Source of the DNA: a virus
Lineage: Duplodnaviria > Caudoviricetes
DNA: 36,865 nt
IMG/VR virus record: IMGVR_UViG_3300036888_000010
Location: 1-36,865 of that record
Reading direction: 5' to 3' (one strand)
Of this stretch, positions 4,197 through 28,294 are shown piece by piece (positions within the stretch are counted from its first letter, which is position 1; each line of letters opens with the position of its first letter). Below the pieces are notes generated by a model that had not been told where the DNA came from, searched no databases, and was given only the letters and a program-made list of their open reading frames with translations. Made by a program: the position numbers and the translations under genes.

Positions 4197-4198
4197 GG

Positions 4199-6228: not shown

Positions 6229-6239
6229 GTGAAACTCCT

Positions 6240-6506: not shown

Positions 6507-6539
6507 AGATGTTAATTCCTCCAGTAGCCCGCACTCTTT

Positions 6540-6797: not shown

Positions 6798-6825
6798 TCG
6801 TCTCCTTTGGGATACAGGCTAGATT

Positions 6826-7299: not shown

Positions 7300-7338
7300 A
7301 GTATAGGCCCTTTCATATTGTATTGCTCCGCTTGTACG

Positions 7339-7635: not shown

Positions 7636-7670
7636 AAAGCTCCGCATCCCCTTTCGTCATAGCCATAGCC

Positions 7671-10600
7671 TCACTGGGTCTCAAGTAGTTGCGCTGATGA
7701 ATTTCCGCTAGTCACAATACCAAATGTGGCAACTACATTGCAGTCGGTTGGGGGCGTGGCTCCCGAATAGGTCGTCCCGCCGCTGCCACCGCAGCCGCTG
7801 ATCGATTGCAGGTATTGGTTTGCCGCCGGTGTTGCGGTGCAGGTATAGAGCGAGCCATAGGCGTGTGATCCAGAGCAGCCCGTCACGGTGCCGCCGCCGC
7901 CCGGCACTGAAACCGAGATTGTGTAGTTGTTGGGCGCGAAGTTTGCAGTAATCCCCGAGTCGGCTTCCAGATTAAATTGTACACAGGGAACCGTCGAACC
8001 CGAGCATCCAGCCGAACCAAGAGCGTTGCTCCAATCAACGAAAGAATATCCCGCTACCGGATTCGGAGTGAGAGCGCCGATGGGCGTGGCCGAAACATAG
8101 GTTCCCCCTACCGAGTTCGTGCCGGTGATGCTTCCGGTTCCCGCCGGGGATACGAGAGGAGTCCACATAAACGATTCAATGCCAAAGACAACCTGGACCG
8201 AGCACGTTGCCGCAGGCATCGTACCGGTGTAAGGCGGCGTCGGTGAGACTCCGCAACCGGTGACTGAATCCACAACCGATCCAGTTGCCGGAGCGACCGT
8301 GATCGTATAAGCGTCGCCGTAGTGCAGCGACGTTGCAGACGGTGTTGCTGTGCCCGAGCCTGTCCCGCTGGTCGTCGCGCCGAGCGTGTAGGAGGTCTGG
8401 GTGAAGTTGGCCGTAGCGGCCGAGTTAGCCGAGATGACGAACGAGGCACAGGGGTTTGTCGCACCGGAACATCCCGCCGATCCCGACACCGAGGACCAGT
8501 CATCAAAGGCATAGCCGGTCGCTGGGGTAGCGGTGCAGGCGCCAATGGTTGTTCCAGAGGTGTAGGTTCCTGCCGCGCAGTGCGTTCCTGCTAGCGTCCC
8601 ACTTGCTACAGGGCTAATGGTGGGCGTCCACGTGTAGCTGCCGCCGCCGGTCGGCGTGAACGTCGCCGTGAGGGTCGTATTGGCCGAGAGCGAGGCAACG
8701 GTGCAAGTCGAGGTTCCCGAGCAGCCGCCGCCGGACCATCCAGCGAAAGCGTAACTGGCCGCTGGAGTCGCCATGCAAGGACCAATAGTCGTTCCCGAGG
8801 TATAGGAGCCCGTATTGCAGTTAGGGCCGGCGACGTATCCAGAAGACACAGGAGATATGACCTGGGTCAAGGTATAGGTGACAGCCGGAAAGACAGCGGT
8901 TACAGAAGTCGGCCCGTTCATGTTGAACGTGCAAGAGACACCAGAGCACCCGGAGACTCCTGACCAAGTCGGCGTGCCATAGCCTGAGCCCGGCGTGGCA
9001 ACGCAAGTAATTGCCTTCCCATTTGGATAATTGCCAGAGGAGCAGGAGAGCGTCCCGGACCCGGAGGGTGAGACAGCGACGGTGAGCGCCGCAGATTGCC
9101 CTAGCGAAATCGCTGAGATGGACTCGTAGTCCGTTGTACTAACGGGTCCGAAGGTGAACGGTACGAAGGTTGATTGATTGAGAGCGCCAAACGCGCCGCC
9201 GTATTGGTTAGAGGTATCGATGTCGGCGGGAGTGGTCCATGGTCCTCCCGGCGCGGTTGGAGCCGGATTACCTTTCGCGCCCCAGACGAGCACGTAGTCA
9301 TTGCCTGAAAGGGTCGGCGCAGGCGCAGCGCAGGCTGTATTGCAGTTCGGGTAACCGATGGCCGTTGTACCGTCGAGAATCGCAGTTCCCGAACTGATGA
9401 TGGGCTGAACGATGTCGCAATCGAGGTTGCCCATCGTCGAAGTTGTGTTGAGTGTGATGCTGCCAGTCGTACTTCCACCGGCCGCACTGGCCTCGTAAGC
9501 GCCGCCGGAGAACATATATTTGCCGCCTGCTGTGGCGGGCTGAGTCTTGAAGAGAGCCGGCACATTGGCCAGCGCATCACCGGAGACGGCGTTGACGGTC
9601 GGCGCGGCCCCTTCGAGCCATCCCCACCAGACGAGGACCGCGGGCGAGCTGGGGGTAAGAGTCTTGGTCGCCGAGCAGGTCTGTGTTGTCCCGGCGCTCG
9701 ACCATGAAACAGAGAAATTCGGCGTCGATGTCGCCGTGGTCCAGAGTCCGCCTGAGATTCCTGTGCCGGTGAGTGCGACCGTCTGCTGGGAACCCGATGT
9801 GCCGCCTGAATTATCCGTAAAGGTCAGTATGCCGTTCTGCGCCCCGAGAGCATTCGGTGTGAACGTTACAGTGACGGTGCAGGACTGGCCAGCGGGGAGC
9901 GAATACGCGAAAGTCGATTGGCAAGTATTCGTCGCGACTGCGAACTCAGAACTGCTCGAAATAATGCTGGCAATGATGAGTGAAGCTGTGCCGGTGTTCG
10001 AGAGCGTAACCGTCTGTGGGCCGCCTGTGACCGTAATGACCTGGTTACCGAAAGCGAGCGTAGATGGAGAGACAGAAGCGACCGGCTGGGCTGGTGGGGG
10101 CGCGCCGCTATACTGATAGGCTCCTACATCCCACGCACCGCCTGCAGGCCGCGAGGTCGGGGCTGCTCCCGGAGAACTGGTGCTGTGCGTGGTTGCGTTG
10201 TAGGCGACACCGTAGGTTGTCGATGCCGCACACTTCGCCGCTGCATCTGTCAAAGTGGGGTCGCTGCCCGATGCCGATGAAAGCGCGGCGCAGAAGGTAG
10301 AAGTCTTGTTGGTTCCCGCGCCCACAGTCGGCGCGCTCCCAGATTGCGGCGCGTAGACGGGCGTGGTCGAGCTTGTATATCCTGCCGCGTTGGCCGCCGC
10401 ATTGGTCATCAAGATATTCGTTGCGGCGCTTCCCTGACCCGAGCAGGACGAACTGTAGATGCTGCCCACGTCTGAGGAGATGAAATGTATGTTCGCATCG
10501 GCGTAAGGTGCGCTGTACGGAGAAACACCGCAACTGATGTCGTTCCCGCCGCCAGCGATGTTCTGAAAGGTGTCGTTGAAGCGCGAGGTCGTGCCTTGGT

Positions 10601-11753
10601 TATAAGAGTTCGGCCCGTTGAATAGCTCCATCGGTCCCGCGTTCCAGACCACGTTATTGAACCAGTAGAGAGTCGCTCCTACTGGCGGAATAGGCCAGAA
10701 TCCTACATTGGTTGTGGGACCGGAAAGGTACAGGTTCTCGAAAAGATTGTTATAGATGGCGTATGCGTTCGCCGGGCTGGCCTGATCCGGGCCAACACTC
10801 TCCATGATATTCGAGTGACCGCTGTTGACGAAGTTATTGATGGTGTTGTCATGGAAGATGTGCTGCGTACGGGTGATGAACTGCGCGCCATCGTTGAAGT
10901 AGGAATAGGCAATCTCCCAGGCCCCGCCGTACATGAACTCCTGTTGCACCGGGTCTGAGTCCGCGCCGTCCACCACATCGAAGAGAAGCACGTCGCCGGG
11001 AGCCGATGGGCCGAGGGTGTAACCGGTCGGGAAGCCACGAAAGGCGCTCATGCATTGCGAATTGATGTCGCAATTCCCCGCTACGGTGAATTGGACATGA
11101 CTCCAACCATGAATATAAAGGTTGTAATAGAACGTTCCGGCGCTCGTCTCGTTGTAACTGACATAGATGGGGGACCAATTTGACGGGGTGGTACAGATGC
11201 CCGTCATTTCGAAGTTGTCGAGAATGTAATTTCCTACTCCTCCGCCGTCCCACATGTCGTTGCTTGGATGCGTGCAGGAACCGAGCGAGGTTGAAGTGGT
11301 TGCGGGGTTGTCCCACGTCAGGATAGGCCGCGCCCAAGACGAGCCGGAGAACCATGTCTGATCCACGCCGATATAGTTGGGATTGCCGCTCGTTCCGTTC
11401 CAACTCCAATCCCACGATCCGCCGGTATATGGCGAAGCTCCAGAATTGCCGAAGTGCCACGTATCGCCGCCGCGAAAGATGATGCCGACGCCGCCCGTAG
11501 GATTGAGTGCTGCTGCATTGCCTGTGGCCGCTGGCATACCTGGCGCGTGCAGCCACGGACTAGATTCGCTGGTGCCCGCATTCGAGTCCGATCCTGTCGC
11601 TGAGACGTAATAGCACGTTGTTACGCCAAGACTCGAAAGCGTGACCTGACTAAGCGGGCTCTGCCAGTTGATATAGTTCGCACCGGAGGGACACGAGGCG
11701 AACGCCAGCGGAGCGCAAAGCAGGAGAGTGACGAGTTGGAGGAGTTTTCTCAT
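7671..11753 (-). CDS. 1360-aa exported adhesin-like protein: signal peptide, beta-helix, Ig-like (choice-of-anchor D/ASPM-like) domain, six InlB B-like repeats
   Basis: MRKLLQLVTLLLCAPLAFA|SC; YYVSATGSDSNAGT-SPW and WDVGAYQY beta-helix flanks; SVSPSTLAFGNQ...VTLSNTGTASL...CTVTVTFTP; ATP..GY.F..W repeats; ATGA-coupled to the upstream gene. Confidence 0.8.
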   Translation of the reverse strand: MRKLLQLVTLLLCAPLAFASCPSGANYINWQSPLSQVTLSSLGVTTCYYVSATGSDSNAGTSESSPWLHAPGMPAATGNAAALNPTGGVGIIFRGGDTWHFGNSGASPYTGGSWDWSWNGTSGNPNYIGVDQTWFSGSSWARPILTWDNPATTSTSLGSCTHPSNDMWDGGGVGNYILDNFEMTGICTTPSNWSPIYVSYNETSAGTFYYNLYIHGWSHVQFTVAGNCDINSQCMSAFRGFPTGYTLGPSAPGDVLLFDVVDGADSDPVQQEFMYGGAWEIAYSYFNDGAQFITRTQHIFHDNTINNFVNSGHSNIMESVGPDQASPANAYAIYNNLFENLYLSGPTTNVGFWPIPPVGATLYWFNNVVWNAGPMELFNGPNSYNQGTTSRFNDTFQNIAGGGNDISCGVSPYSAPYADANIHFISSDVGSIYSSSCSGQGSAATNILMTNAAANAAGYTSSTTPVYAPQSGSAPTVGAGTNKTSTFCAALSSASGSDPTLTDAAAKCAASTTYGVAYNATTHSTSSPGAAPTSRPAGGAWDVGAYQYSGAPPPAQPVASVSPSTLAFGNQVITVTGGPQTVTLSNTGTASLIIASIISSSSEFAVATNTCQSTFAYSLPAGQSCTVTVTFTPNALGAQNGILTFTDNSGGTSGSQQTVALTGTGISGGLWTTATSTPNFSVSWSSAGTTQTCSATKTLTPSSPAVLVWWGWLEGAAPTVNAVSGDALANVPALFKTQPATAGGKYMFSGGAYEASAAGGSTTGSITLNTTSTMGNLDCDIVQPIISSGTAILDGTTAIGYPNCNTACAAPAPTLSGNDYVLVWGAKGNPAPTAPGGPWTTPADIDTSNQYGGAFGALNQSTFVPFTFGPVSTTDYESISAISLGQSAALTVAVSPSGSGTLSCSSGNYPNGKAITCVATPGSGYGTPTWSGVSGCSGVSCTFNMNGPTSVTAVFPAVTYTLTQVISPVSSGYVAGPNCNTGSYTSGTTIGPCMATPAASYAFAGWSGGGCSGTSTCTVASLSANTTLTATFTPTGGGSYTWTPTISPVASGTLAGTHCAAGTYTSGTTIGACTATPATGYAFDDWSSVSGSAGCSGATNPCASFVISANSAATANFTQTSYTLGATTSGTGSGTATPSATSLHYGDAYTITVAPATGSVVDSVTGCGVSPTPPYTGTMPAATCSVQVVFGIESFMWTPLVSPAGTGSITGTNSVGGTYVSATPIGALTPNPVAGYSFVDWSNALGSAGCSGSTVPCVQFNLEADSGITANFAPNNYTISVSVPGGGGTVTGCSGSHAYGSLYTCTATPAANQYLQSISGCGGSGGTTYSGATPPTDCNVVATFGIVTSGNSSAQLLETQ

Positions 11754-14197
11754 GGAATGCGCAATCCTGTGTCAGTCGTGGTCCCACAACTTCCAGCCGT
11801 GATAGTGAGTGCGCCAGCAGGTAGCGTTCCTGAAGTGGCGCAGCGATAGACAATATTCGTGCCCGAGTTAATGCCGACGATACGATTTAAAATAACCCAT
11901 CCACCAGCCGCGCGGTCAATCTCAAGGGGTGAATCGATATAAGCTCCAGCATCGGAATAAGCTTGAATTTCATAGTTTGAGCCTGCGTTGCTTCCGCTCT
12001 CAGAAGAGGCATTAGCGCGGGCTATCCAGCGAGGCAGGTTGTTTGTCTCGTACCAAAGATCGCGATTTTCTCCCGCCACCGAGGTCGTCAGGTAAGCGAC
12101 TGCGTTTGTGGCTCCAACTGACACTCCAAGGGTTCCACCTAGTCTGACGTTTCCCGTTACCGTCAAGGAATTAAGCGTCGCAGCCTTGCCAATGGCATTG
12201 AGATTTCCGTTATCAATAATGGTCGAGTCATAGGCTGCGGTGATTGAAACATCTGCGATGGTACGGCTTGCGTTCGTATTCACGATGTAAGACTGGTTGA
12301 CGTGATTGTTGATGGAGAACGATCCGCCCTGTCCGTCGATGAGATAGAGTCCGGTTGCAGCATCGATACTGATTGAGCCAGCCCCGTAGTTGTTAGTTAT
12401 CTGACTCCCCAAGATATTAGAGCCTGAATCGGCTAGAAGAAAATAGCCGCTCCCACTTGGCGGAGGTCCGGTAGCGCGGATGTTTGTAAGATTGTATCCA
12501 CCCATCGCCCCATTATAGATAACAGTATTGGGAATGATGTGAAAAGCAGCGTAGGTCTCGGAGAGTCCAGGTGCCCATTCAATCACAGTCCCGTCAAAGG
12601 AAATCTGGCCCTGCACCGATGCATCAGCCTGGATGATCTGTACGGCGTCGTTACCTGCTTTGAGATACCCGCCTTTGTAGTTTAGGGAGGTTGCAGCGCC
12701 TTGTTCAATTTGGATAGGAACTGCGGATGGAGATGACGACTGATCCTCAATGTCTAGGCCCGATAAGTCCATTGCAAGGCTCGTTGAGGCAGTCATGCCG
12801 CCAAAACTCAGATCGTCCGATTGGGAGAGATAGACAACGCGGAGAGCCCCACCACAGGTCTTGCGGATATAGGAACCTTTGTCAAACTGCAAGCCATCCG
12901 TCGCCACGCCATAGAACGAAGCTTCTGTTGCGCACCCGTAGATCGTAACGCCATGGAAGTGAATGTCGCTTCCTACCAGATTTGATGTTCTCCCCAAAGC
13001 CATAATGAAATTTGGTGGCGACGAGGAGTTGTCCGCTTCGAGACCGATATCCTCAAAATTCAGGTAACTGGTGCCGACGAGCTTAAATGCCGTTGCTCCA
13101 GATCCCGTGTAGTCTATGACTGTATCTTGGCCTTCCTCTCCTCGGATTGTACCGTGAGCTACCGCTCCAAAATCCAGAGTGCAACTAGTTTTGTAGACGC
13201 CCGTCTCCCAATAGGGGGCATACAAAGAACCTCCAGGATGAGCCGCGAGCCATGTAATTGCATTGGTTAGCGGCGTGCAGTTGTCGGTGGAACTGTCTGC
13301 TTTAGCATTGAAATCAGCGACCAGATTTTTTGTCAGCACTGGTGTTGAGACGCTGCTCGCAGTTATCACCGCCGGACAGCTTGCCTCCCAGTTCCCGCCG
13401 TTCGACCACACACGCAGCAATTGGGGAGACGCGAGCGAAACGGAACTGAAAAGGCCAGGCGGAGGGCATTCGTTGAAGATATTGGTCGATCCGGAGACGA
13501 TCGGCGCCAGAGTCCCCGATCCGACGGCGCTGAACGGAATCAGGCACTTCTCCGTATAAGCGGGCAGCGTAGCAACAGCCGCAGAATTCATGAGCGCGTA
13601 ACCGTTGCTCGTTCCGCATTGGGCCGTGAATGGCGCAAACTCCTGGATCTGGTCGCCGATGCCCGCCGCGCCCGCACACGAGATTCCAGGGCCGCCATCT
13701 GTAGGCCAACAATCATTGTTGGACCCCCCATTCGGAGCCGCGAGCCCATTGCCCGTCAATTGGCCTGAAAACACAGGATTGTTTAGCGGCGTTCCGGTTG
13801 AGGAGGCGTTTAGCGTAACGGTGGCAGAACCGCTATTCCACGTCTGCGCCTGCACCAGAATGAAGGTTGCAGAGCCTACCGCAACACTCCAGTTTCCGTT
13901 GGCGGTGATGGTGGAGATCTGAGTCCACGTCTGCGAGTTGAGGTTCTGATAGGTTGCGGTAGGAGAGCTGATCGAGACAACCTGAAGCGTTCCCGACCAA
14001 GTACCGGATACCGTGACGGTGATCCACGGCGCCGGGCCGGGGACACTGGTCTGCCCCAGAATCGGAACTTGCATGTAAACGCAGCTCCGCGCCGTGCAAT
14101 TCGATGCACTGGCGTTGATGGTGCCGAAAGTGCTGGTGTTTTGGGCGAAAGCGGCAATCGGCAGAAATAGCGCGAAAATGAGCAATCGTTTCAACAT
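11750..14197 (-). CDS. tailspike/depolymerase-like beta-helix protein with signal peptide (815 aa)
   Basis: AAGGTG RBS before ATG 14197; MLKRLLIFALFLPIAAFA|QN; pectate-lyase-3-like entry motif VADFNAKADSSTDNCTPLTNAI...LYAP...GVYK. Confidence 0.75.
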   Translation of the reverse strand: MLKRLLIFALFLPIAAFAQNTSTFGTINASASNCTARSCVYMQVPILGQTSVPGPAPWITVTVSGTWSGTLQVVSISSPTATYQNLNSQTWTQISTITANGNWSVAVGSATFILVQAQTWNSGSATVTLNASSTGTPLNNPVFSGQLTGNGLAAPNGGSNNDCWPTDGGPGISCAGAAGIGDQIQEFAPFTAQCGTSNGYALMNSAAVATLPAYTEKCLIPFSAVGSGTLAPIVSGSTNIFNECPPPGLFSSVSLASPQLLRVWSNGGNWEASCPAVITASSVSTPVLTKNLVADFNAKADSSTDNCTPLTNAITWLAAHPGGSLYAPYWETGVYKTSCTLDFGAVAHGTIRGEEGQDTVIDYTGSGATAFKLVGTSYLNFEDIGLEADNSSSPPNFIMALGRTSNLVGSDIHFHGVTIYGCATEASFYGVATDGLQFDKGSYIRKTCGGALRVVYLSQSDDLSFGGMTASTSLAMDLSGLDIEDQSSSPSAVPIQIEQGAATSLNYKGGYLKAGNDAVQIIQADASVQGQISFDGTVIEWAPGLSETYAAFHIIPNTVIYNGAMGGYNLTNIRATGPPPSGSGYFLLADSGSNILGSQITNNYGAGSISIDAATGLYLIDGQGGSFSINNHVNQSYIVNTNASRTIADVSITAAYDSTIIDNGNLNAIGKAATLNSLTVTGNVRLGGTLGVSVGATNAVAYLTTSVAGENRDLWYETNNLPRWIARANASSESGSNAGSNYEIQAYSDAGAYIDSPLEIDRAAGGWVILNRIVGINSGTNIVYRCATSGTLPAGALTITAGSCGTTTDTGLRIP

Positions 14198-14204
14198 AAT
14201 CACC

Positions 14205-15761
14205 TTAGAATTGTGAGGGAAGCTGGATCGGAACACCCTGACCCGGGAGCCCGAGCTGCTGCCGTTGGCGCAAGTATTGCATCATAGCCGCGCTTCTCTC
14301 GCCGGGAGTCATAGTCGGTGAGTATGGCACCATTCCAGGTTGAGCATAGGGCGCGCCTGCTTGTGCGGGCAATTGAAGAGCAGGGCCTGTATGGGGGGTA
14401 TATGGGCTGTAAAGGGCCGGTCCCGGCAATCTTACAGTTGGCGAAGTCGGCAAATCGGAATAGAAGTTTTGCAACTGGCGCTGAAGCTGATCCAGCTTCC
14501 CTCCGCGAACCATTCCTCCAACTTTACTCAAAGCCGGACCGAGGACACTGCCCCGCGTCAATTGCGGAGCACTCTCTATGGTGTTGCCGACGAATGTTCT
14601 GGCGTCGAACGGAGCATTGGCTTTAGCTTCGGCCGCAGCAAGGCGCGGTGTGGCTCCTTGTAGTGCTCCTTGCTGTTGAATCAAGCCCCCCTCTATCCTT
14701 TTGATTCCGCTAAAGTCCTCGCCAGTGGCTTGCTGCAATGCGTCGTAGTAGGCGTTCCGCGTCGAGTTCGCCATCTGGTGCACAAGCTCCGGGGTGCCCA
14801 CAGACTTCGCGTAGGTCGGATTTCCGCGCAGGGTCGTATCTTCGACGTTCATGTATTTGCGGAACTCATTGAGGCCATCGAGAGTGGTCACACCCGCAGC
14901 GCGCGCACGCAAATTTTGAATCGTATTCAGATCTTCCGGGTCGATAGCTTGTAATTGCGCCTGCGTGGGCATAATGGACCGCTGTATAGAGGTCGTATCT
15001 ACAGGCACGTTGCGCACCTGTCCGAGAATGGCATTATGCGACTGGTCAATAGCGGTTTGAGCCTGCCGGATGATTGCCTTGTGCGCCTGCAAAGCCGCCA
15101 CCGGATCATTGCCATTGATCGCTGCGACATCTTGCGGGTTCTGAGCGGCGGTGTCGCGGATGATCGAGCCAGTCTGTTTGGCGATATCTTGCGGAATAAA
15201 GTTTGGGTTGGCCCCCGCATTGCCTTCGGCTGTCACGGCGGCATGAGACTTCATTTGAGATTCGGTGAAATTCTCTCCGGGAACGAGCTTGGGAGAGCGA
15301 GACGGAATCGATTCTGCCGCATCCTCGACTTCCGCGCCTCCGGCACCCATGAGCGCCGCCTGGGGAAGCGCCGCGATAGCCTCACCGCCCGGATTCGAGA
15401 TGAATGGACGCACCATGTTCTCAGCCGGTGTTAGCGTGTCTCCTGTGGCTATTTGCCCGGCCGTCTGCGATAAAGCGGACAGAGTATCGATCGGATGGGC
15501 GAGCGGTGAGAACAGACGCACTGCGCCCGCCCCAAGATCGGCACCGGCCGACTTGAAGAATCCGCCAACCGAAGAAGTATCGAGCGGAGGCGCTTGCGCA
15601 GCGCTGTCAATCGCGCGGTGCAGGGGGTCTGTGCCGCGTAAGACCGAGCCCACACTCCAACCTGGAGGCGCCGGAGATTTCTCGATCAATCCGGCAGAGA
15701 GATCAACGCTTCCCGCTTTCGGTACCATCCCCGCCGAGAGATCGACCTGAGACGTCGCCAT
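14205..15761 (-). CDS. putative DNA ejection (internal virion) protein
   Basis: TAATG-coupled start at 15761 (MATSQVDLSAG); A/G/Q-rich helical; third of three genes after the GNAT. Confidence 0.65.
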   Translation of the reverse strand: MATSQVDLSAGMVPKAGSVDLSAGLIEKSPAPPGWSVGSVLRGTDPLHRAIDSAAQAPPLDTSSVGGFFKSAGADLGAGAVRLFSPLAHPIDTLSALSQTAGQIATGDTLTPAENMVRPFISNPGGEAIAALPQAALMGAGGAEVEDAAESIPSRSPKLVPGENFTESQMKSHAAVTAEGNAGANPNFIPQDIAKQTGSIIRDTAAQNPQDVAAINGNDPVAALQAHKAIIRQAQTAIDQSHNAILGQVRNVPVDTTSIQRSIMPTQAQLQAIDPEDLNTIQNLRARAAGVTTLDGLNEFRKYMNVEDTTLRGNPTYAKSVGTPELVHQMANSTRNAYYDALQQATGEDFSGIKRIEGGLIQQQGALQGATPRLAAAEAKANAPFDARTFVGNTIESAPQLTRGSVLGPALSKVGGMVRGGKLDQLQRQLQNFYSDLPTSPTVRLPGPALYSPYTPHTGPALQLPAQAGAPYAQPGMVPYSPTMTPGERSAAMMQYLRQRQQLGLPGQGVPIQLPSQF

Positions 15762-17326
15762 TACGGGATCACCTGATATCCCTGCTGCTGCGCTGCCGCC
15801 TTGGCTGCGTTCGGATCGCCCTTTGGATTTGCAGCGCGCCATGCCCCCAGACTAAATTGATGCGTCTGCGGCGTGGGTGCAGCGGCGGGGCTAGCGTTTT
15901 GAGTGGGAGGATTGACCTGCACGGGCTCAACGGGCTTAAACTTCGCGCCGTATGTCTGATTTATTGTGGAAAGGTCATTCTCGTATTTGGCCTGAGACCC
16001 GCGCTGCATCACATCCTGCATCTGAGCCATGTCGCTCAGTACAGAGGTGGGGAACGACCGACCAGTGAGAGCGCCTCCGAGATGCCCCTGCAATCTCTGC
16101 AGCCACGAGCCCCCCCCGTAATTCTGAATCTCGGCCATATTGATGCGGTGGACGCCCTGCGAAGTCGTAATTTGCAGCGCGCCCTCTTGAGGGATGATCT
16201 TGTAGGAAACCACGTTCCCGCTCTTCGCAGCGGCGAGCATCTGCTGAAGCGTCTGCGTGACCGACTGCGCCTGAGCATAGTCCTCCCCTGCTTTCGTTGC
16301 GGCTGCTGTCGCAGGTGCAACCAAGTGCGGTGGGACCATCGCAAGGGCGGCATCGCTGCCCCGCGCCGCTTGGGCTTCTACGTTGGCGCGTGCCGCGCCC
16401 TCGGCGGCCGCGACCTGGACTTTCCCCTGCTGAATCTGCGGATTCGTTTGCATCCTTACCGCCTGATTCACTTCTCCCTGCTGAATCTGCTCAGCGCCGG
16501 GAGCGGTCCCCATAGCGATGGATGCGGCCGACGGCTCGTAGAGCGGGCTATTTGGGTCAGTTTTCCCTTGCGCGTTCTGGAAGGTAATCTTTTTTTGCGC
16601 GGCATCAAGAAGTTGAGCATAGCCGCCCAGGCTTTTAGCTTGGATTTCTAACTGCTGCCGCGCCTGCCCTGGATTCTGCTGCGCAAGCGTTGCGAGTTGC
16701 ATGGCCTGTTGGACGTGTGATGGGTCGAAGAGGCCATTGTGAGAGAGTTGTTGCGCTGTCTGTTGTATCGCTTGCGGCAATTGCGCGTCTGGAGTGTTCA
16801 GCACTCCATTCATCGCATCGACGATCATGCCGTTCTTGGTCTTCATCGTTTCGGCATTCGAGGTTCCAGCCCGCGCGTCATCCATCGCAGTCTCGGCGGC
16901 CTGATTTTTCAGCTTGGAAACATACTCTGTGAGTGGCTGGATAGCCTGGGCCGACGCTCCGTTTTTCATCGCCAGCGTGATCAAATCGTCGTAATTCGGC
17001 AGCGCACTGGAAGAGCCAGAGGAAGGTGCGGCAGCGGATGTATCGCTCGCCGACGCCGCGCCGGTTGCCGGGGATTGAGGAGCGCTTTGCATCTTTACCC
17101 ATTGCTGATACGACGCCTGCATCGCTTTTGCATCATTGAGTTGTATCTGGGTCTTCTGATTCTCCATCGTGCCAGCCTGCACCTGATTTTGGAGCGCGGC
17201 TTGCCGAAGCGGTTGCTCCTGCATCTGGTTACGAATACCCATCATCTCAGCATATTGCTGAAGCGGGTTCGCCTGCGTTGGGATGGGCGGTTTTACGTCA
17301 AGAGCCGGAAGAGGGATGGTTGCCAT
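15761..17326 (-). CDS. putative DNA ejection protein
   Basis: 521 aa, Q/A-rich helical; position typical of P22 gp20-like proteins. Confidence 0.65.
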   Translation of the reverse strand: MATIPLPALDVKPPIPTQANPLQQYAEMMGIRNQMQEQPLRQAALQNQVQAGTMENQKTQIQLNDAKAMQASYQQWVKMQSAPQSPATGAASASDTSAAAPSSGSSSALPNYDDLITLAMKNGASAQAIQPLTEYVSKLKNQAAETAMDDARAGTSNAETMKTKNGMIVDAMNGVLNTPDAQLPQAIQQTAQQLSHNGLFDPSHVQQAMQLATLAQQNPGQARQQLEIQAKSLGGYAQLLDAAQKKITFQNAQGKTDPNSPLYEPSAASIAMGTAPGAEQIQQGEVNQAVRMQTNPQIQQGKVQVAAAEGAARANVEAQAARGSDAALAMVPPHLVAPATAAATKAGEDYAQAQSVTQTLQQMLAAAKSGNVVSYKIIPQEGALQITTSQGVHRINMAEIQNYGGGSWLQRLQGHLGGALTGRSFPTSVLSDMAQMQDVMQRGSQAKYENDLSTINQTYGAKFKPVEPVQVNPPTQNASPAAAPTPQTHQFSLGAWRAANPKGDPNAAKAAAQQQGYQVIP

Positions 17327-18318: not shown

Positions 18319-18319
18319 A

Positions 18320-18775: not shown

Positions 18776-20547
18776 TGCACTTCCGCCCATGTACTGATAG
18801 CCCAAGTTCCGGCCGGCGAGCAAGTCGAGGTTACGGTTGGGGTCACCGAAAAAGTGTCGCCCGGTGGCACTACGAATGTAAAACTTACGCCGGGGCTATT
18901 GCTGCACTCGTTAGCGATCTCCCCTCCATTGAAGGTCAGTCCCGCATCGGTAAAAGCTGCCTGGTATTGGCCCCCCGTCCCCGACGTCCCAGTCAATGAG
19001 ATACTGACAATTTCCGTCACTGCGTAGCTGGCGCAATTCGTGTACGTGGTTGAAGCGGCATAGGTTGAAGTGGTGGGGCAACTTGTTCCGCCGCTACATG
19101 ACGCGGTCAGGCAGTTCGTGAGCCCGCTCACAACTCCAGCGGTCGAAGAGCCGACCGAGTTCCAGCTCGTGCCGTTGAAGACGCCGATCGCGGTTGTACA
19201 GGAAGACCCTCCGGAAGCAACCGTCGGAGCCTCTAGGAAATTTGTGGGCCAGACAAAGCTCCTGTTACCTGTTGAGTCCTGGCAGATATTGAAGTTGATT
19301 ACCTGCCCGAAGAATCCGCTCGTCAGGGTGCTGGACGTGACGTCACCAGTCAGCGTCATGTTAAATTGGTTGTAAATGCCCGCATTGAAGACCGGCGTCG
19401 CGCTGAAGACAACCGCCTGTGGGCTGTAGGGGTAGGTTGTGTTGGCCTGAATCCAATTGGTGCCGTTATAGACGAAGACGGGGGTTATGCAGGCATTCGG
19501 CGCTGCGGGCACGGCGGGAGGGTTCAGGAACGAGGGATCCCACGTGAACGTAAATCCGCCAACGCTGTTTTGACAGATATAGGTCATGATCTCCTGACCT
19601 AAAACTGCGCCCGTAAGCGTCATCGTCGTGTTTTGGTTGAGCGTGAGCGAAAAAATATAGTAGGGATCGACCGCGAAGGTCACAGCGGAGTCTGGCGTCA
19701 CCACGTCGTATGTGGCGGCTGTCTGCGGGCCGAGTGCGTTGACATATTGCCACAGCGCGCCATCAAAGAAGAACATCGGGGTGATACAACCGTTGGGGGT
19801 AGTCGGCAGCGTGGGGGGGTGCACGAAGCCTGAGGGCCAGGCGAAAGTGTATCCGCCTGTAGCGTTCTGGCATAGATCAAACTGAATGAATTGGCCAGCC
19901 AATCCGCCGCTCACGGTCGATGAGGAGACGTTGGCGGTAAGCGTCATGGTAAAGGTTGTGTAGGACCCGGCGTCGAACACGGGCTCTGCCGCAAATGTCA
20001 TAGCATCGACTTTGCCCGCAATTTCTGTGAAGCTGCCGGCCGCCGGTGTTCCGCCGGATGTGCCGATTGGACCATTGAAATATGTGCCGTTTACCGGTCC
20101 CGGTGTCGTTCCGCCAATGGTGCCGTCATCGAACGTCGAAGTCGTGATGGTGGAACTCTCAATCGTTGCGCCTGAAATCACGCCGCCGATCCACTCGCTG
20201 CCTGGAACCTGATCAACTGACCATTGCTGCACGCCAGTCGAGCAATTTGTTCCGCCATAGCTGAAGGCGATGAATTTGTATGTTTCCGGACCCAGCCACA
20301 TGACGGCGCTGCCGGTTGAGTCGAGAATCACCGGATTTGTGTTGGGCGTCCCGCCAGTGTAATCCGTGTATGTGGCTTGCGGGGTCGATGTTCCCCCCGC
20401 ATAGGTAAAAACGCAGCCATTCGCGAGCGGCACGCCATTGGGATCGACAGCAGTAAATCGCGGCGTGCGAAACGGAGACACGGATACTGAAGCCGCTACT
20501 GCGATTGGCAGCGCCAGGAAAATCGAAAGTAACGCTAATCTGCGCAT
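18772..20547 (-). CDS. tail fibre/receptor-binding adaptor with signal peptide and three internal repeats
   Basis: MRRLALLSIFLALPIAVAA|S; podovirus virion-anchor-like DPNGVPLANG.VFTYAGGTSTPQATYTD...NTNPVILDSTG; three repeats of CQ(N/D)..G...F.W...C.T.....GT.W. Confidence 0.8.
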   Translation of the reverse strand: MRRLALLSIFLALPIAVAASVSVSPFRTPRFTAVDPNGVPLANGCVFTYAGGTSTPQATYTDYTGGTPNTNPVILDSTGSAVMWLGPETYKFIAFSYGGTNCSTGVQQWSVDQVPGSEWIGGVISGATIESSTITTSTFDDGTIGGTTPGPVNGTYFNGPIGTSGGTPAAGSFTEIAGKVDAMTFAAEPVFDAGSYTTFTMTLTANVSSSTVSGGLAGQFIQFDLCQNATGGYTFAWPSGFVHPPTLPTTPNGCITPMFFFDGALWQYVNALGPQTAATYDVVTPDSAVTFAVDPYYIFSLTLNQNTTMTLTGAVLGQEIMTYICQNSVGGFTFTWDPSFLNPPAVPAAPNACITPVFVYNGTNWIQANTTYPYSPQAVVFSATPVFNAGIYNQFNMTLTGDVTSSTLTSGFFGQVINFNICQDSTGNRSFVWPTNFLEAPTVASGGSSCTTAIGVFNGTSWNSVGSSTAGVVSGLTNCLTASCSGGTSCPTTSTYAASTTYTNCASYAVTEIVSISLTGTSGTGGQYQAAFTDAGLTFNGGEIANECSNSPGVSFTFVVPPGDTFSVTPTVTSTCSPAGTWAISTWAEVH

Positions 20548-20584
20548 TGTAATTCCTTGGCTTTCTCCCTGCTCGTGTGGAGCA

Positions 20585-20821
20585 TCAATCTCCGTTGCAG
20601 TTGTAGTAGAGCGCCGGTGTTCCCGTGGTCACGTAGGTAAACGTCACCGCCGTTTTGCTGATTGCGCTCACGTAGGGAAGCGCGGTTGAAGTGCCCGCGC
20701 TCACCGTGCAATTCGCCCATGTTCCCCACGCCACGCCGAAAGTTAAAGTCGTTGCGGTTGAAGCGGTGCCTGTGGCGATGATTCCGGCGTTGTCCGTGCC
20801 GCGAGTAAGGGAGCCGGCCCC
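20585..20821 (-). pseudogene. start-less 3' remnant of a tail-fibre-like gene (78 codons)
   Basis: Manual translation: GAGSLTRGTDNAGIIATGTASTATTLTFGVAWGTWANCTVSAGTSTALPYVSAISKTAVTFTYVTTGTPALYYNCNGD*; in-frame TGA directly upstream; no ATG in the frame. Confidence 0.6.
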
Positions 20822-20985
20822 TCATGCCCAAACTCATTCCAGAACGCCACGGCCGCCACTGGGGTACCATCGGGATACGTTGCCCCCTCCATGAATCCCA
20901 CTTCAACTGAACCGCCTCCCAATTTCCGAACGAGATCTTGCAAATGCTTTGTGACTCGTTCGGACATCGGAATCGAGCGTTTCAT
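20743..20985 (-). pseudogene. truncated 5' fragment of a long-tailed-phage neck/virion morphogenesis gene
   Basis: VEVGFMEGATYPDGTPVAAVAFWNEFG motif; similarity ends near 20820 and the rest reads out of frame over the fibre remnant. Confidence 0.6.
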
Positions 20986-20986
20986 C

Positions 20987-22594
20987 TTAATACGTCACCC
21001 AATTTGTTCCGTTGCAGACCACCGGGGATTGCACCGTGCTGCCACCGGTGTATGTTCCCAGGAATGTTGGTATGGTGGCATCGCTCACCTGTAGTTGGAC
21101 TCCAGTTGTTGATGCTCCGCAAGTTGGCAATGGCGTTCCAGCGACACTGTAAAGGATGTTTGTTTGGATGCCGTTTGTGTACTGCCAAAACCCAGCCGCG
21201 ACCGAATAATCTGAAGAGATGTTGATATTCCCCAGAACCGGCGTCCCTGAAACGATCAAGGGAGTGGATGTCCTTGTGAGCGCGTTTCCGCTCAAATTAC
21301 TGCTGAGTCCGTCGTCGGTCTGCAATGTAATGCTTGAATAGAAATCGGCCCCGGAAGTGGAAACAGCCGAGTTGTGAATCGTGACTCCTCCAGCAAACGA
21401 CGTTCCGGAAATTCCTATTGCAACGGCGAATTCAATATCAGATATGCTCCCGTTGGAGTTCTCTGCTGATCCGGCTATTAGTTGCACGTTAACCACGCCG
21501 GTTAGCTGATAGCTGTCCACGTCGGTGCTTTGCAACACCACATTGCCGCTTGTACCGTTGACGACAACAAATCCATTTCCGTAATAATTGGCTACCTTCG
21601 CAATGGGAGCATTTATCAAAATTGAGGTATACCCGCCGTTGGGTAGAGTGTTGCCCTGTTCGACATCGTTATCCAATTCCGTGTTAGGGCCTTCTATGTC
21701 AAAAAGTGCTGGCGTCCCAGTTGCGGATGTTTGATATATCCCCAAATCTCGGATAAGAGATGCTGTGCAATTCGATGACGTGGTGACACCACTCCCGGTT
21801 CCGGCGTAGTTGAAAATTTGACCATTGCCGTAGATGGCGTTATATCCGAACAGATTGGACGCGCTACAAAGCGTAATGCCCACAGTACCAAGATTGCACT
21901 GCGTCGGCGGGGATGGGCCAACCGGAATCATAATGGCCGCGTTCTGATCGAGCGCGGCCTGAATCGCCACGTGATCATCGGTTGAGCCGTCGCATTTCGC
22001 CGAGTAGGGTGGTTGTGTTACGTCCACAGCGAAGGGCGGAACATAAGCGAGCGCCCCGGAGCCACTATTGGTCAAAACACCGAAAGAGTTAGCTGGAAGA
22101 GGATTGCCGTTGAGACCGGTGACGGTCGGATCGGGAAAACTTCCACCAAGATCACCGCCAGCCGCCCCGACGGCGTCCAGACCGGCTGTAGCAACTGAGG
22201 CGGCGATAACGGCGGCGCCACTCGTATAGCTGCTTGCGTAGACGCAAATCTGCGTGAGGCCAGCCGGATTGATGGTCCATGTCCCATTTGAAGTTGTGGA
22301 GGTAACGGGACTTCCGGATGGGATTGGTTGGGCACTGACACTTACCCATGTCGAGCCATTGACTGAGCCGACAAATTGCAGGGTGCCGACCCACGTTCCG
22401 GAAATTGTCGCCGCATAGGCAGAGGCAGTTGGCGGTAGCACCAGGTAGACATATCCCGCGCCGGCCCCGGAGCACGAAGAGGTTTGCAGCGTGATTTTTC
22501 CGTAGGTGCTAAGAGATGGATTCTGGGCGCGGAGAGGCAATGACCATCCAAAGATAGTCAAAATGCCCGCGAAAAGCCATTTAGAAATAGTCAT
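20987..22594 (-). CDS. tailspike-like beta-helix protein with signal peptide (535 aa)
   Basis: ATGA-coupled start at 22594; MTISKWLFAGILTIFGWSLPLRA|QN; AGGDLGGSFPDPTV linker; VTQPPYSAKCDGSTDDHVAIQAALD. Confidence 0.75.
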   Translation of the reverse strand: MTISKWLFAGILTIFGWSLPLRAQNPSLSTYGKITLQTSSCSGAGAGYVYLVLPPTASAYAATISGTWVGTLQFVGSVNGSTWVSVSAQPIPSGSPVTSTTSNGTWTINPAGLTQICVYASSYTSGAAVIAASVATAGLDAVGAAGGDLGGSFPDPTVTGLNGNPLPANSFGVLTNSGSGALAYVPPFAVDVTQPPYSAKCDGSTDDHVAIQAALDQNAAIMIPVGPSPPTQCNLGTVGITLCSASNLFGYNAIYGNGQIFNYAGTGSGVTTSSNCTASLIRDLGIYQTSATGTPALFDIEGPNTELDNDVEQGNTLPNGGYTSILINAPIAKVANYYGNGFVVVNGTSGNVVLQSTDVDSYQLTGVVNVQLIAGSAENSNGSISDIEFAVAIGISGTSFAGGVTIHNSAVSTSGADFYSSITLQTDDGLSSNLSGNALTRTSTPLIVSGTPVLGNINISSDYSVAAGFWQYTNGIQTNILYSVAGTPLPTCGASTTGVQLQVSDATIPTFLGTYTGGSTVQSPVVCNGTNWVTY

Positions 22595-22773
22595 GGGTTG
22601 ATTGCTTTCTGAAGCGCCGCGATTTGGGCCTGAAGAGTGGCGATGGTAGCCTCGTGGCTCACAAGTTGCGCCTGGATCGATGCCATCTGATTCTGGCCCA
22701 TCAATGTGAAGCCACTCGGCTGCTTCGGATCGATATACTTGACCGAGAACTGGAACGGAGCCGTATTCGCCAT
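22591..22773 (-). CDS. small coiled-coil tail protein (tail-needle/plug position)
   Basis: 60 aa; IQAQLVSHEATIATLQAQIAALQ heptads; follows the gp10-like gene. Confidence 0.55.
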   Translation of the reverse strand: MANTAPFQFSVKYIDPKQPSGFTLMGQNQMASIQAQLVSHEATIATLQAQIAALQKAINP

Positions 22774-24308
22774 TACGTGATTTCCTCATAGCGCTGGCTC
22801 AAGCGTTGCTGTGGAAGCTGATAGAGCGATCCGGCCTTAAGGTACGCATCGACAATGCGCCACGGCACCGGATCGGTTACCGAAACCTCATAGACGCGAT
22901 CACGCGCCTGTCCAAGCCGGTTCCAGTAGACGCGCTGCCGATATTCTCCCGTCTGACCCGCCGAACGAACGTATTCATTGCTCCAAGTCCTGCCGCCATC
23001 GTTCGACCACCGCAATATCATTTGGGGGCCGCGAGGCTCGCCGGCGCCGTCAAGCAGTGGCGGCATTGGGCCGTCTCCTACTTCGACATCGACCTGGAGG
23101 AAGCTGTGAAAGATGCGAACCTGCTCAACCGAGATATGCGGCGCGCGCCGAACGCGGCGAATCGGCTGTCCATTGTCCTGATAAGTGTAGATCGACATGG
23201 CGTAGATAACGCCGGTGTTCCAGTCGCCTACGAGGTTCTGACCAAAGCAAAAGGCATGGCAAGTCGAGTTATGAGCCGTCCATCCGCTCGGCGATTGTGG
23301 TGACCAGTGTCCGCGTTCATGCCACATTTGCGTGGCAGTATCGTATACCCAGGTGGCACCGAATCCCTGATTGGCGCTCGGAAAGCGCAGAACCCAAAAG
23401 GTGTGCCCCTGATCGCGGTAAGCGTAGCCAATCGCATCAGTTCCCCGACTTGGATATGCCGCCCAAGCGGTTTCTACCGCATGATTCGAGATGCGAGAAG
23501 GGGAATATCCGTTCGCCCGCCATGCGATCCCGATGCCGGTCTGGTAGCCGCCGATCCAGGAAGGCGTATTATCCAATACCGCGAGAGAGCTTGGAGCGCT
23601 GATGCCCTCTTCCATGAAAGCGCCCGGAATCACATCGAACGGCGTTACGGCGCTGGCCCCAGAGTTGTAATAGACCTGCGCATGACCATTGAGCCCGTAG
23701 ACCCAAAGCTGATTGAAGGCGCTCACGATAGCTGCGACGTTCTCCGGGAACACCAGAACTTGCTCGACGCCAAGAGGATTCCAGGTCGTACCGTCTAGCA
23801 GCGCAGATACCTGGAATTTGTTGCTGTTGGCCAGCAAAGCCACAAAGTAGCCCGAGCAGTAGACCACCATCGATACGGTGCCTTGAAGCCCAAGAATCGG
23901 ACCACTCAGTACATTGGCAGTCAGATCCAAGGAGTACAGATTCCCGGCGGAACATACAACCAGTTGATTTCCGTCTGCCCCATTTGAAGCCATTGTTACT
24001 TGGTTATAGTCGTCACCGATGTTGCCCCGGTTATTGTTTGAGCCGTCTTTATAGACCTCGTAAAGGTTTGGGCCGCCCACTGCAAACAGGCGTCCATCAA
24101 TCGCCAACATGCCGCGCACAGCCCTCGTAGGGGCAATGAGCGACGGAAGAGCAGCAAAGACCGACAAGCCGGGCGTAGGATAAAGCGCCATCGCGGATTT
24201 ACCGAGCTGGCTCTCGATCGACTCCGGATACCAATTCATCGCCTGCTGGCAATCGGCGGTGATCGACTGCGACGTGTACGAAGGTCCACAGAACCCAAAG
24301 CGTCCCAT
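22773..24308 (-). CDS. packaged-DNA stabilization/tail hub protein (P22 gp10-like)
   Basis: TAATG-coupled start MGRFGFCGPSY; NWYPE...LYPTPGL; TWVYD...WHER; LRWSNDGGRTWSNE...GEY...W.RLG.AR.RVYEV..TDPV. Confidence 0.85.
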   Translation of the reverse strand: MGRFGFCGPSYTSQSITADCQQAMNWYPESIESQLGKSAMALYPTPGLSVFAALPSLIAPTRAVRGMLAIDGRLFAVGGPNLYEVYKDGSNNNRGNIGDDYNQVTMASNGADGNQLVVCSAGNLYSLDLTANVLSGPILGLQGTVSMVVYCSGYFVALLANSNKFQVSALLDGTTWNPLGVEQVLVFPENVAAIVSAFNQLWVYGLNGHAQVYYNSGASAVTPFDVIPGAFMEEGISAPSSLAVLDNTPSWIGGYQTGIGIAWRANGYSPSRISNHAVETAWAAYPSRGTDAIGYAYRDQGHTFWVLRFPSANQGFGATWVYDTATQMWHERGHWSPQSPSGWTAHNSTCHAFCFGQNLVGDWNTGVIYAMSIYTYQDNGQPIRRVRRAPHISVEQVRIFHSFLQVDVEVGDGPMPPLLDGAGEPRGPQMILRWSNDGGRTWSNEYVRSAGQTGEYRQRVYWNRLGQARDRVYEVSVTDPVPWRIVDAYLKAGSLYQLPQQRLSQRYEEIT

Positions 24309-25279
24309 TACGGATTCGGCATTCCAGAATAGTAGTTGTAGTCGCTCATATTGTTCTGCACCCCAGGCATTCCCACATCCCCGGTGAGGCCGCGCGGGGA
24401 CTTGATGTTGTTCGACTGCACTGACTTGATGGCCAGCCTCCAGTTGTCTTCCTGTTGTGCCGTCCAACTTCCCTGAAACGGTCCCACCATATCCCGCGCC
24501 AATTGCATCGTCACGGCGTCCTGGTAGCCGGGCGGAAGACTGAAGTTGTAATTCAGGCTCGGAAACTGAGGAATTGTGCCCCAAATAGCCAATCGAATCA
24601 GATAGGCATAATTCGGAACGGGCCACAGATAGATTGATCCATTCGGCCAGTCGGCATCGTAATAAAGGTCGGTCGGGATGTCGGTTTGGAGATTCTTGAC
24701 GCGAACATTCATCCACCACTCGCGATCCCGGATATTCATCGGAATATCGACGTATTCTTGGACGCTCATGTTATTCAAAACGAGATTTGCCTGCAAAATC
24801 TTCTGCGGCCGCTGCCCCATATTGGGTGTGGCGAAGGTGGGAGCCGAATTCGCGGTTAAGACAACCGTTCCGGTATCGGCTGCGAGCCCTACCGCACCGC
24901 CGATCAGCGGAATGCTGAACTTTGCCGCCGTCGCAGACTGAACGTTTCCGGTTCCATTCAGACCATTTATCGAGTTTGAAACCGTTACTGACTGCCCATT
25001 GGTGAAATTATTGGCGCAGAAATACGTCGCGACATTGTTAGCGCGCTCACTTTGCGTCAGTTGGCCTTGCGGCCCAATGGTGTGGGGATTTAGACCGGGA
25101 ACAAGCGTATAGGTGGGCAGGCCGGTGTCGTAGATGAACGGCTTGCGCGCCGCCCATCTATCGACTATCCGGTTGAGCTTTGCCAGCGCAAAAGTCGCGT
25201 CCGCAGAGCTGGGTCCTTCCTGAATCGCTATTGCATTGATTTCCTGAAGGGCACCGGTGATGATGTCAAGTGCCGTCAC
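24308..25279 (-). CDS. head-to-tail adaptor (P22 gp4-like) with an inserted beta domain
   Basis: MTALDIITGALQEI...LNRIVDRW; LYYD...IYLWPVP; LPPGYQDAV...LA. Confidence 0.75.
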   Translation of the reverse strand: MTALDIITGALQEINAIAIQEGPSSADATFALAKLNRIVDRWAARKPFIYDTGLPTYTLVPGLNPHTIGPQGQLTQSERANNVATYFCANNFTNGQSVTVSNSINGLNGTGNVQSATAAKFSIPLIGGAVGLAADTGTVVLTANSAPTFATPNMGQRPQKILQANLVLNNMSVQEYVDIPMNIRDREWWMNVRVKNLQTDIPTDLYYDADWPNGSIYLWPVPNYAYLIRLAIWGTIPQFPSLNYNFSLPPGYQDAVTMQLARDMVGPFQGSWTAQQEDNWRLAIKSVQSNNIKSPRGLTGDVGMPGVQNNMSDYNYYSGMPNP

Positions 25280-26243: not shown

Positions 26244-26253
26244 AATGCTCCTT

Positions 26254-26282
26254 AAAAAGCGGGGCACCTTGCGATGCCCCAC
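26254..26282 (-). terminator. Rho-independent terminator after the coat and decoration genes
   Basis: Minus strand GTGGGGCATC-GCAA-GGTGCCCCGC-TTTTT. Confidence 0.8.
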
Positions 26283-26287
26283 CAGAA

Positions 26288-27031
26288 TTACGGCTCGAAG
26301 CGCGGCACATCGAGCAGGTAGGTACCTGCTGCCGGTGTGCAAGCCGCGGCTGTAAGGGTTGTGAAATACAAGCTCACCGTGTTGGCTGCCGACACCGATG
26401 CGCTCGTGAGAGGGCACAGGGAGGTAGCTGCAGGCTGGCTTGCCACAATGATGGGCTCTCCTACAACGAGGCCCGCCACTGTGAAGGTTTGCGCAGCGGT
26501 CTGAATGGCCGCCGAACTCGCCGCTGGGGTGATTGACCCAGTGGTTAGAAGCGGCTCCCAGTTATACACCCCACTTGAAAGGGTGACGCAATTCCAGTAA
26601 CTGACCTTCGACTGATAGGCCGGGCCAATTACCAGAGTGGGGTTGTACGTGATAGACGGGGTGCAAGTCCCCTGCGGAATCGAACTCAGGAAGACATTCG
26701 GACTCCCCACCCACACGACAGCCGCCGCGTTATGCGCTACCGCTTTGGTGCCATTGGCGCCGCGCACTACCGTGATGGATTTCCCGCTCAGCGACTCGAC
26801 CGTCAACGCTTCCTTGTCAATGACAAGAGTCGTGTTGAAGCCGGGTGTCTGAGAGGGGCCGCCAAAAGCGTTGGGTGCGACGATTCCGGTAGCGGAAACC
26901 ACCTGAATCACCTGTTGTACCCTATCCGTTGCACCGGATAGGGTGGTTTGAGTCAAGGCCGTCTGCGCTACCGAAAACACCGGAAACACAAGGAAAGCCA
27001 GGAGGGAGAAGGTTTTAATGAATTTGTTCAT
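26288..27031 (-). CDS. putative capsid decoration protein with signal peptide
   Basis: Lies between the coat gene and the terminator; MNKFIKTFSLLAFLVFPVFSVA|QT; IDKE...TVVRGANGTKAVAH; four Cys. Confidence 0.65.
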   Translation of the reverse strand: MNKFIKTFSLLAFLVFPVFSVAQTALTQTTLSGATDRVQQVIQVVSATGIVAPNAFGGPSQTPGFNTTLVIDKEALTVESLSGKSITVVRGANGTKAVAHNAAAVVWVGSPNVFLSSIPQGTCTPSITYNPTLVIGPAYQSKVSYWNCVTLSSGVYNWEPLLTTGSITPAASSAAIQTAAQTFTVAGLVVGEPIIVASQPAATSLCPLTSASVSAANTVSLYFTTLTAAACTPAAGTYLLDVPRFEP

Positions 27032-27040
27032 GGTTTCTCC

Positions 27041-28291: not shown

Positions 28292-28294
28292 TTG

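Follow-up and report, generated by a model that had tools for sequence, protein, structure and literature searches.

Assembly of tailed phages is taken to finish in the cytoplasm. Why, then, would a short-tailed phage place Sec-type leaders on five of its late genes? The question is raised by the IMG/VR virus record IMGVR_UViG_3300036888_000010 (Duplodnaviria; Caudoviricetes), a record of 36,865 bases that was analysed over its whole length and is called the window below. A preliminary description of this record had noted the five leaders and proposed that the proteins are exported, fold with disulfides in the periplasm and join the core particle at or after lysis. All five N-termini were located at minus-strand coordinates 27031, 22594, 20547, 14197 and 11753, and we call the corresponding proteins SP1 to SP5. 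From their sequences we consider it fairly probable that Sec export, periplasmic disulfide folding and docking on finished particles at lysis apply, at least for SP3. The five genes are as follows.

26288..27031, minus strand: SP1, 247 amino acids (aa); leader spanning residues 1-22 (26966-27031), with Gln23 as the first mature residue, 4 Cys
20987..22594, minus strand: SP2, 535 aa; leader 1-23, N-domain of the XepA/YomS fold, beta-helix-type region, 8 Cys
18772..20547, minus strand: SP3, 591 aa; leader 1-19, head-binding domain at residues 20-125 (20173-20490), 14 Cys
11750..14197, minus strand: SP4, 815 aa; leader 1-18, an N-domain that is a homolog of the SP2 N-domain, then a beta-helix-type region, 14 Cys
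7671..11753, minus strand: SP5, 1360 aa; leader 1-19, beta-helix, ASH immunoglobulin-type (Ig) domain, five InlB-B repeats, 36 mature Cys

The leaders were called with a home-made rule, not with SignalP, that asks for a basic n-region, an uncharged hydrophobic core and small residues at positions -3 and -1; it was composed after the five leaders had been seen and was not tuned afterwards. Out of 37 window genes the rule retains five, which are exactly SP1 to SP5, and the earlier statement that the core proteins lack a leader holds for all other genes of the window (0/32). The background is low, with 27 positives over 1297 start codons on both strands, 3 over 3573 internal windows of core proteins and none over 3173 internal windows of the five mature proteins. 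The false positives encountered in relatives were one adaptor open reading frame (ORF), one small terminase and one nozzle read from an internal ATG. The leader cores are short and end in small-residue/Gln junctions, and homologs by the hundreds retain the leader-first architecture. The cysteines had been described as regularly paired; the mature counts are even in all five proteins (4, 8, 14, 14 and 36 from SP1 to SP5).

The starts are supported by ribosome-binding sites (RBS) or by stop/start overlaps, as had been proposed, and the homologs begin at the same places. More precisely, SP1 (27031) has AGGAG, 9 nucleotides past the coat stop, SP2 (22594) and SP5 (11753) start in ATGA overlaps, and SP4 (14197) is preceded by AAGGTG after the stop of the upstream gene. 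An AAGGA motif is present for SP3 (20547), but this gene lies downstream of a broken region, described below, and its start is the weakest-supported of the five, again as anticipated. Longer starts given by the ORF finder for SP2 (22789) and SP4 (14236) were rejected because homologs start at the leader Met (P0233); the upstream SP4 start is also countered by an Acidicapsa protein that aligns from residue 1. In four RNA runs, contigs match the stretch 11600-31500 at 99% or more, so the four leaders that lie well inside it are not assembly errors. The RNA runs that contain the late region are of peat and permafrost origin. Contig depth is higher over the scaffold, coat and SP1 genes in these four runs, but depth cannot rank genes and was not used.

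The phage itself is, by its gene content, a P22/Pam1-type short-tailed podophage from soil. The minus strand encodes a terminase, a scaffold, a portal and a coat that are both of the P22 type, a nozzle resembling gp10 and a lysis region, together with a putative adaptor and three putative ejection proteins. This set includes the portal, coat, hub and ejection protein of a P22-like late module. It resembles the P22 late operon in the Pfam families of portal and coat, the gp10-like hub, the ejection proteins and the gene order. Over the 12 kb compared, the window is identical to a 42,336-bp record (G001) rated 100% complete, whose extra 5.5 kb hold early-type genes and no leaderless spike or fibre gene. 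A search for tRNA genes found none. Of the 14 loci with coat relatives in the genome collection, 10 belong to Acidobacteriota, one of them being that of the cultured Acidicapsa dinghuensis 4GSKX; the host is therefore likely an acidobacterium.

The separation between core and peripheral genes extends to the relatives, where the preliminary description had suggested looking for it. The coat protein served to gather 94 loci, of which 14 are genomic and 80 were kept out of 312 viral matches; several are near-copies, six coats are identical to that of the window, and ORFs with an open 5' end were not counted. Leaders are absent from the portal (0/58), the scaffold (0/67), the coat (0/77), the nozzle (0/58) and the ejection proteins (0/24 and 0/12), and were called on a single adaptor-like ORF among 80 and on a single terminase small subunit among 20. 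The accessory homologs, in contrast, carry leaders in 40 of 43 cases for SP1 and in 9 of 9 for SP3. One locus (L084, 11264-18657) has seven leader-bearing late genes between coat and nozzle.

SP3 provides the most direct link between a leader and a virion part. Its head-binding domain, which holds Cys45 and Cys102, is followed by three fibre-type repeats of about 97 aa with one C-x27-C pair each. The SP3 profile matches the tail spike chains of 9VYG with an expectation value (E) of 1.5e-13 and, at E 2e-11, the 18 head-binding chains that 7EEQ contains, single-sequence matches being weak, and the domain also matches annotated tailspikes or fibres of cultured phages (33 records, e.g., PBR31, H6/1 and X14). 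The P22 head-binding Pfam family gave no match to SP3 at E 0.01. The P22 tailspike is not known to have a leader. The entry 7EEQ is cyanophage Pam1 (PMC13730344), and the P22 tailspike folds with its cysteines in the cytoplasm into a native state without disulfides (PMC3357383), whereas SP3 has Cys pairs. The tail machines of Pam1 (7EEQ) and of 9VYG/9VYH are alike in having a domain homologous to the SP3 head-binding domain at the start of the spike, together with a homologous nozzle; the window nozzle matches 9VYG_M at E 3.5e-20 and 7EEQ_1 at E 1.3e-14. However, the 9VYG spike chain is leaderless and aligns from residue 1, while SP3 has a predicted cleavable leader and an added Cys pair. Hence, SP3 likely works as Pam1-type spikes do, but as a variant with a 19-residue leader and not as a plain member of the group. 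Its assignment as a virion protein is well founded on this homology, and it is likely a neck-bound spike or fibre.

The leader and the cysteines go together. Among the best 120 of 161 homologs of the SP3 domain, 75 are leader-bearing, while the other 45 begin with the domain itself; at least two Cys are found in the domain of 67/75 leader-bearing copies versus 0/45 leaderless ones, and the Cys count of the whole chain is even in 69/75 versus 24/45. All 75 leader-bearing copies have a cleavage junction of the small-residue/Gln type. Of 28 columns conserved in the leaderless copies, 25 are kept in the leader-bearing ones, a count inflated by the choice of homologs for their likeness to the query. 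Nor does the link between leader and Cys represent 75 independent events, as 65 of these copies group in a single clade of a quick tree for which the Cys columns were retained; three leader-bearing copies outside it have Cys pairs at other positions. The same contrast in the fibre repeats is uninformative because the set had almost no truly leaderless copies. A complex prediction of the nozzle, the adaptor and one SP3 head-binding domain scored 0.00 with controls that did not fold, and is evidence neither way. One homolog (P0126) has about 100 extra annotated N-terminal residues, possibly read-through from a small gene after the nozzle. Considering the leaders, the core-versus-periphery split in relatives and the Cys pairs tied to the leader, the proposal that the five proteins are exported and folded with disulfides in the periplasm is strongly supported by the sequences.

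SP1 consists of a beta-barrel domain (mature residues 1-92) and a C-terminal beta domain. The leader rule is passed by 94 of its 112 database homologs, most of the others showing a leader by eye, and the median identity is 36% in the leader versus 54% in the mature chain. Exactly four mature Cys occur in every one of the 61 full-length homologs that were parsed (two more were not). We analysed the starts in 41 parsed loci (two more were not parsed): in 36 of them the leader Met follows an RBS-like motif, and in 39 the gene starts at most 100 nucleotides from the coat stop. The preliminary description had pointed to true starts downstream of the leaders as a way in which its proposal could fail. 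For SP1 this is not what we found, as no alternative start lies close to the cleavage site in 32 of the 41 loci, and only one locus has such a start with an RBS-like motif. We thus rejected a second start, and a leaderless second product of SP1 is unlikely.

The SP1 model (predicted local distance difference test, pLDDT, 86.8) gives structural matches for the first domain to the capsid chain 9IN6_M of Vibrio phage VP1 (Z 11.5, root-mean-square deviation, rmsd, 2.1, 76 aligned residues) and to the tail tips of JBD30 and Chi (8RK3_o and 8VJH_A, Z 10.6), the latter being found by sequence profile as well. By structure comparison the domain further resembles a tail tube and a GP4 portal-tail chain. 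Foldseek returned no match to SP1 at E<=0.001, no solved decoration protein stood out as a match (the C-domain was not searched alone), and there was no match to SP1 among cultured phages. PHROGs gave weak tail matches, for SP1 and SP3 only. The virion-type beta-barrel and the fixed place behind the coat gene suggest that SP1 is a candidate capsid decoration protein.

The N-domains of SP2 and SP4 are homologous (29%, E 3e-10) and belong to a family of 1714 clusters, of which 95 of the best 150 pass the leader rule. Pfam finds nothing on SP1-SP4, and the SP2 N-domain has no solved relative by sequence. The beta-helix-type regions that follow carry a cap motif that we take to be typical of tailspikes. 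The model of the SP2 N-domain (pLDDT 94.8) superimposes on the C-domain of XepA (Z 14.4, rmsd 2.9, 104 aligned residues) and YomS (Z 14.2, rmsd 1.7, 99 aligned), and Foldseek relates it to the same fold at E 2.5e-7; on this model it has the XepA/YomS jelly-roll fold, which SP4 would share by homology. XepA of PBSX and YomS of SPbeta are pentameric jelly-rolls. XepA is reported to leave the cytoplasm while the phage develops but to be missing from mature PBSX particles, and its binding to capsid vertices is a hypothesis (PMC6834076). In SP2 and SP4, unlike XepA, the domain heads a long beta-helix chain and comes with a leader and a Cys pair. SP2 and SP4 are likely glycan-binding spikes on a XepA-fold base.

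The beta-helix of SP5 resembles Acidobacteria-type, i.e., host-type, proteins. The protein was flagged for a lipobox at Cys21, but its -3 residue is Phe, and cleavage by signal peptidase I leaves an even 36 Cys, versus 35 free ones if it were lipidated. SP5 is possibly a free released enzyme or adhesin. Hence, the label "virion-type" that had been given to all five proteins is too strong for the set: it is well founded for SP3 and plausible for SP1, SP2 and SP4, and weakest for SP5.

Cultured phages offer analogues of this arrangement. Tunturi 1 (PP887698) and Tunturi 2 (PP885685) are podophages isolated on Tunturiibacter psychrotolerans X5P2 (PMC11924767) and have five leader-bearing late genes each (5 of 24 and 5 of 9 scored), including genes annotated as tail spike, tail fiber and virion structural protein. 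They are podophages of Acidobacteriota, the likely host group of the window phage too; four of the five leader genes are long and Cys-rich, as in the window, and the core genes scored in Tunturi 1 are leaderless; gp17 is like SP5 a protein with a beta-helix and an Ig-type domain ahead of the lysis genes. However, they have no homology to the window proteins at E<0.001, which makes them analogues. Tunturi 4 has a leader on 1 of 24 genes, that of a Cys-free protein just upstream of the endolysin gene. The terms "signal peptide" and "mass spectrometry" are absent from the main text of PMC11924767.

Closer in sequence, the prophage of Acidicapsa dinghuensis encodes a leader-bearing SP1 homolog, an SP3 homolog with a called leader and an SP4 homolog (45% over 181 residues), along with an integrase-like ORF judged by eye. 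Downstream of that ORF and past the apparent prophage end (L105, G002:C10, minus strand) there is a 963-aa leader-bearing ORF with 16 Cys, possibly a host secreted protein of the kind that SP5 resembles. In Cellulophaga phage phi18:3 (KC821620), the consecutive genes gp085-gp087 are annotated as structural from tandem mass spectrometry (MS/MS) and have leaders that end at or near Gln; they make up 3 of the 12 MS/MS-annotated structural proteins in the part of the genome examined. This phage differs by its Bacteroidota host and by the few Cys of these proteins (0, 1 and 3), and by our analysis it gives the sole experimental indication of leader-bearing proteins accompanying tailed virions. In filamentous (Ff) phages, the virion proteins pIII and pVIII have signal peptides and periplasmic disulfides, but these phages belong to another virus group, are extruded through the membrane without lysis and have no cytoplasmic head and tail. 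Two further candidate precedents were rejected: gp19 of Sinorhizobium phage phiM5 is leaderless, with 0 of 20 late proteins of that phage positive, and the preprint on the decorating esterase of phi24B does not, in the part consulted, mention a signal peptide. Our literature search on signal peptides in tailed-phage fibres and structural proteins, covering few subscription papers and no supplements, found no description of the route, and it is unreported in the parts consulted of PMC5723332, PMC3357383, PMC11924767, PMC12494034, PMC6834076, PMC13730344 and the preprints.

How would such a phage be built? Late transcription would yield core and accessory proteins together. The core, by homology, would stay in the cytoplasm and build DNA-filled particles with adaptor and nozzle, while the five accessory proteins would cross the inner membrane via the host Sec system, lose their leaders, three of them then starting with Gln, and form disulfides in the periplasm. 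Because the lysozyme has no leader, lysis likely goes through holin lesions, which would let the two pools mix. With the inner membrane breached at lysis, the head-binding domain would let SP3 dock on the finished particle. The P22 tailspike is reported to attach to finished heads in vitro. We infer cleavage, periplasmic location, disulfides and docking at lysis from the sequences. The wider proposal, that in widespread soil podophages head, neck and ejection proteins are cytoplasmic and the whole recognition and decoration set is secreted, oxidised and attached at or after lysis, possibly from a pool shared by particles that are released together, tips only slightly to the side of the probable.

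Several points weigh against docking of exported proteins on the particle. No experiment places the five proteins in particles, and the leader calls rest on a home-made rule. The limits given above on the SP3 comparison, i.e., the inflated column count and the clade of 65, also apply here. In some relatives SP1 is missing or fibre-like genes have no leader (L013, L087 and L089), and receptor binding could fall to the nozzle itself. Tunturi 3, which shares its host strain with Tunturi 1 and 2, has leaders on 0 of 27 genes; by our analysis the leader trait is thus a choice of the phage, not imposed by the host, and export is optional. The co-purification evidence comes from another phage, phi18:3, with its Cys-poor proteins. 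SP2 and SP4 share their N-domain fold with XepA, which is reported as absent from mature particles (PMC6834076), while SP5 resembles host-type beta-helix proteins and has no docking domain that we recognised.

In the main rival reading, the five proteins do reach the periplasm and fold there but are never built into the particle, being either cargo released by lysis or agents acting on the envelope, e.g., by receptor masking, cutting of capsule or exopolysaccharide, as decoys or in superinfection exclusion. The Shiga toxin has Sec leaders. According to the phi24B preprint, it is produced in lytic development alone and lysis sets it free, and XepA offers a precedent with the very fold of the SP2 and SP4 N-domains (PMC6834076). 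SP5, which looks like a host-type secreted protein and adjoins the lysis genes, may well follow this path even if SP3 docks, and export without virion binding would apply above all to SP5, SP2 and SP4. It fails to account, however, for the head-binding domain of solved tails in SP3 next to a nozzle of matching type, for the link between SP1 and the coat gene, and for the lack of a leaderless spike in the complete genome; the MS-detected structural annotation of leader-bearing proteins in phi18:3 also speaks against it. We regard it as unlikely for the set as a whole, though worth serious attention. Virion parts could also be attached from the cytoplasmic side, through a leader left uncleaved at the inner membrane, partial escape from export or a leaderless second start. 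Assembly would then stay in one compartment, as is the rule in tailed phages, in-frame GTG/TTG codons do occur near the cleavage sites in SP1 and SP3, and the P22 tailspike folds in the cytoplasm without disulfides in its native state (PMC3357383). Yet the start analysis of the SP1 loci, the short cores and cleavable junctions of the leaders, and the restriction of Cys pairs in the SP3-type domain to leader-bearing copies make this quite improbable. That the leaders are non-functional, being chance hydrophobic N-termini or wrong starts, could draw on the home-made rule as sole source of the calls and on the broken region ahead of 20547; set against the low background, the architecture kept in hundreds of homologs and the support from RBS or overlaps, it is very hard to credit. 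The first proposal, Sec export followed by docking at lysis, is supported in part: a virion role has support for SP3 by homology and for SP1 by gene position and fold, and export alone may apply above all to SP5, SP2 and SP4.

The remaining features of the late region are listed here.

29369..31450, minus strand: P22-type portal, leaderless (PF16510, E 1e-101)
28295..29344, minus strand: scaffolding protein, leaderless (phrog_8865, weak)
27041..28291, minus strand: P22-type major capsid protein, leaderless (PF11651, phrog_283)
26254..26283, minus strand: GC hairpin and U run just after the SP1 stop, terminator-like (z -3.2)
24308..25279, minus strand: putative head-tail adaptor, leaderless, gp4-like by position (phrog_12985, unknown function)
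22773..24299, minus strand: nozzle or tail hub, gp10-like, leaderless, true start 24299 (phrog_578)
20585..20985, minus strand: broken region between SP2 and SP3, with an 80-aa neck-type fragment (phrog_222) and a fibre-like fragment
14205..18318, minus strand: three putative ejection proteins, leaderless, 0-1 Cys each (phrog_598 for 17326-18318, the others by position)
6240..7647, minus strand: lysis region, with a leaderless lysozyme at 6826-7299 (PF00959) and small membrane proteins (holin candidates)

The hairpin after SP1 is spanned by RNA contigs; a terminator scan did not list it and found no excess of sites. The adaptor has no solved relative by sequence and exceeds most relatives in length by about 70 aa (L027, L030 and L083 have 320-325 aa, versus about 250); the difference stems from a beta-rich insertion inside the chain, a possible site for docking. 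In four loci (L037, L050, L087 and L089), two or three tandem adaptor-like paralogs stand ahead of the nozzle gene. In the broken region, an overlapping fragment in another frame is a headless, fibre-like C-terminal piece of 78 aa with two Cys; the region looks like a scar of module swapping, and a twin record (L014) has the same fragment. A GNAT acetyltransferase gene (18320-18823, minus strand) lies just upstream of the first ejection gene and occupies the same slot in several relatives and in Tunturi 1-3. No lipoprotein (spanin-like) call was made on the coding strand of the region 3567-7647 (minus strand), and downstream of the lysis genes there are a phosphoesterase-like gene (phrog_7339) and a 159-aa gene whose product, by eye, resembles a permuted papain-type protein. 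Finally, the early region (window 36595-36865; L101 3-563; L102 3-1352 and 1691-2758) contains no fewer than two and probably three ORFs built from Cys-containing, leucine-rich-type repeats of 19 aa with a 57-bp period; the linear record breaks inside these repeats, and the two ORFs whose starts are visible have no leader.

What we describe is a variant of known tailspike and accessory proteins. Two-compartment assembly, if confirmed, would represent a novel mode of tailed-phage morphogenesis. Infectivity would then depend on host Sec and Dsb functions, progeny could not adsorb while still inside the cell, and disulfide-rich adhesins or glycanases secreted by the hosts could be taken up by phages as receptor-binding parts. 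The question is made testable by cultured systems, namely Tunturi 1 and 2 versus the leaderless Tunturi 3 on one host strain and the prophage of Acidicapsa dinghuensis. It also matters for annotation, as leader-bearing late genes are easily misfiled as morons or auxiliary metabolic genes in soil viromes.

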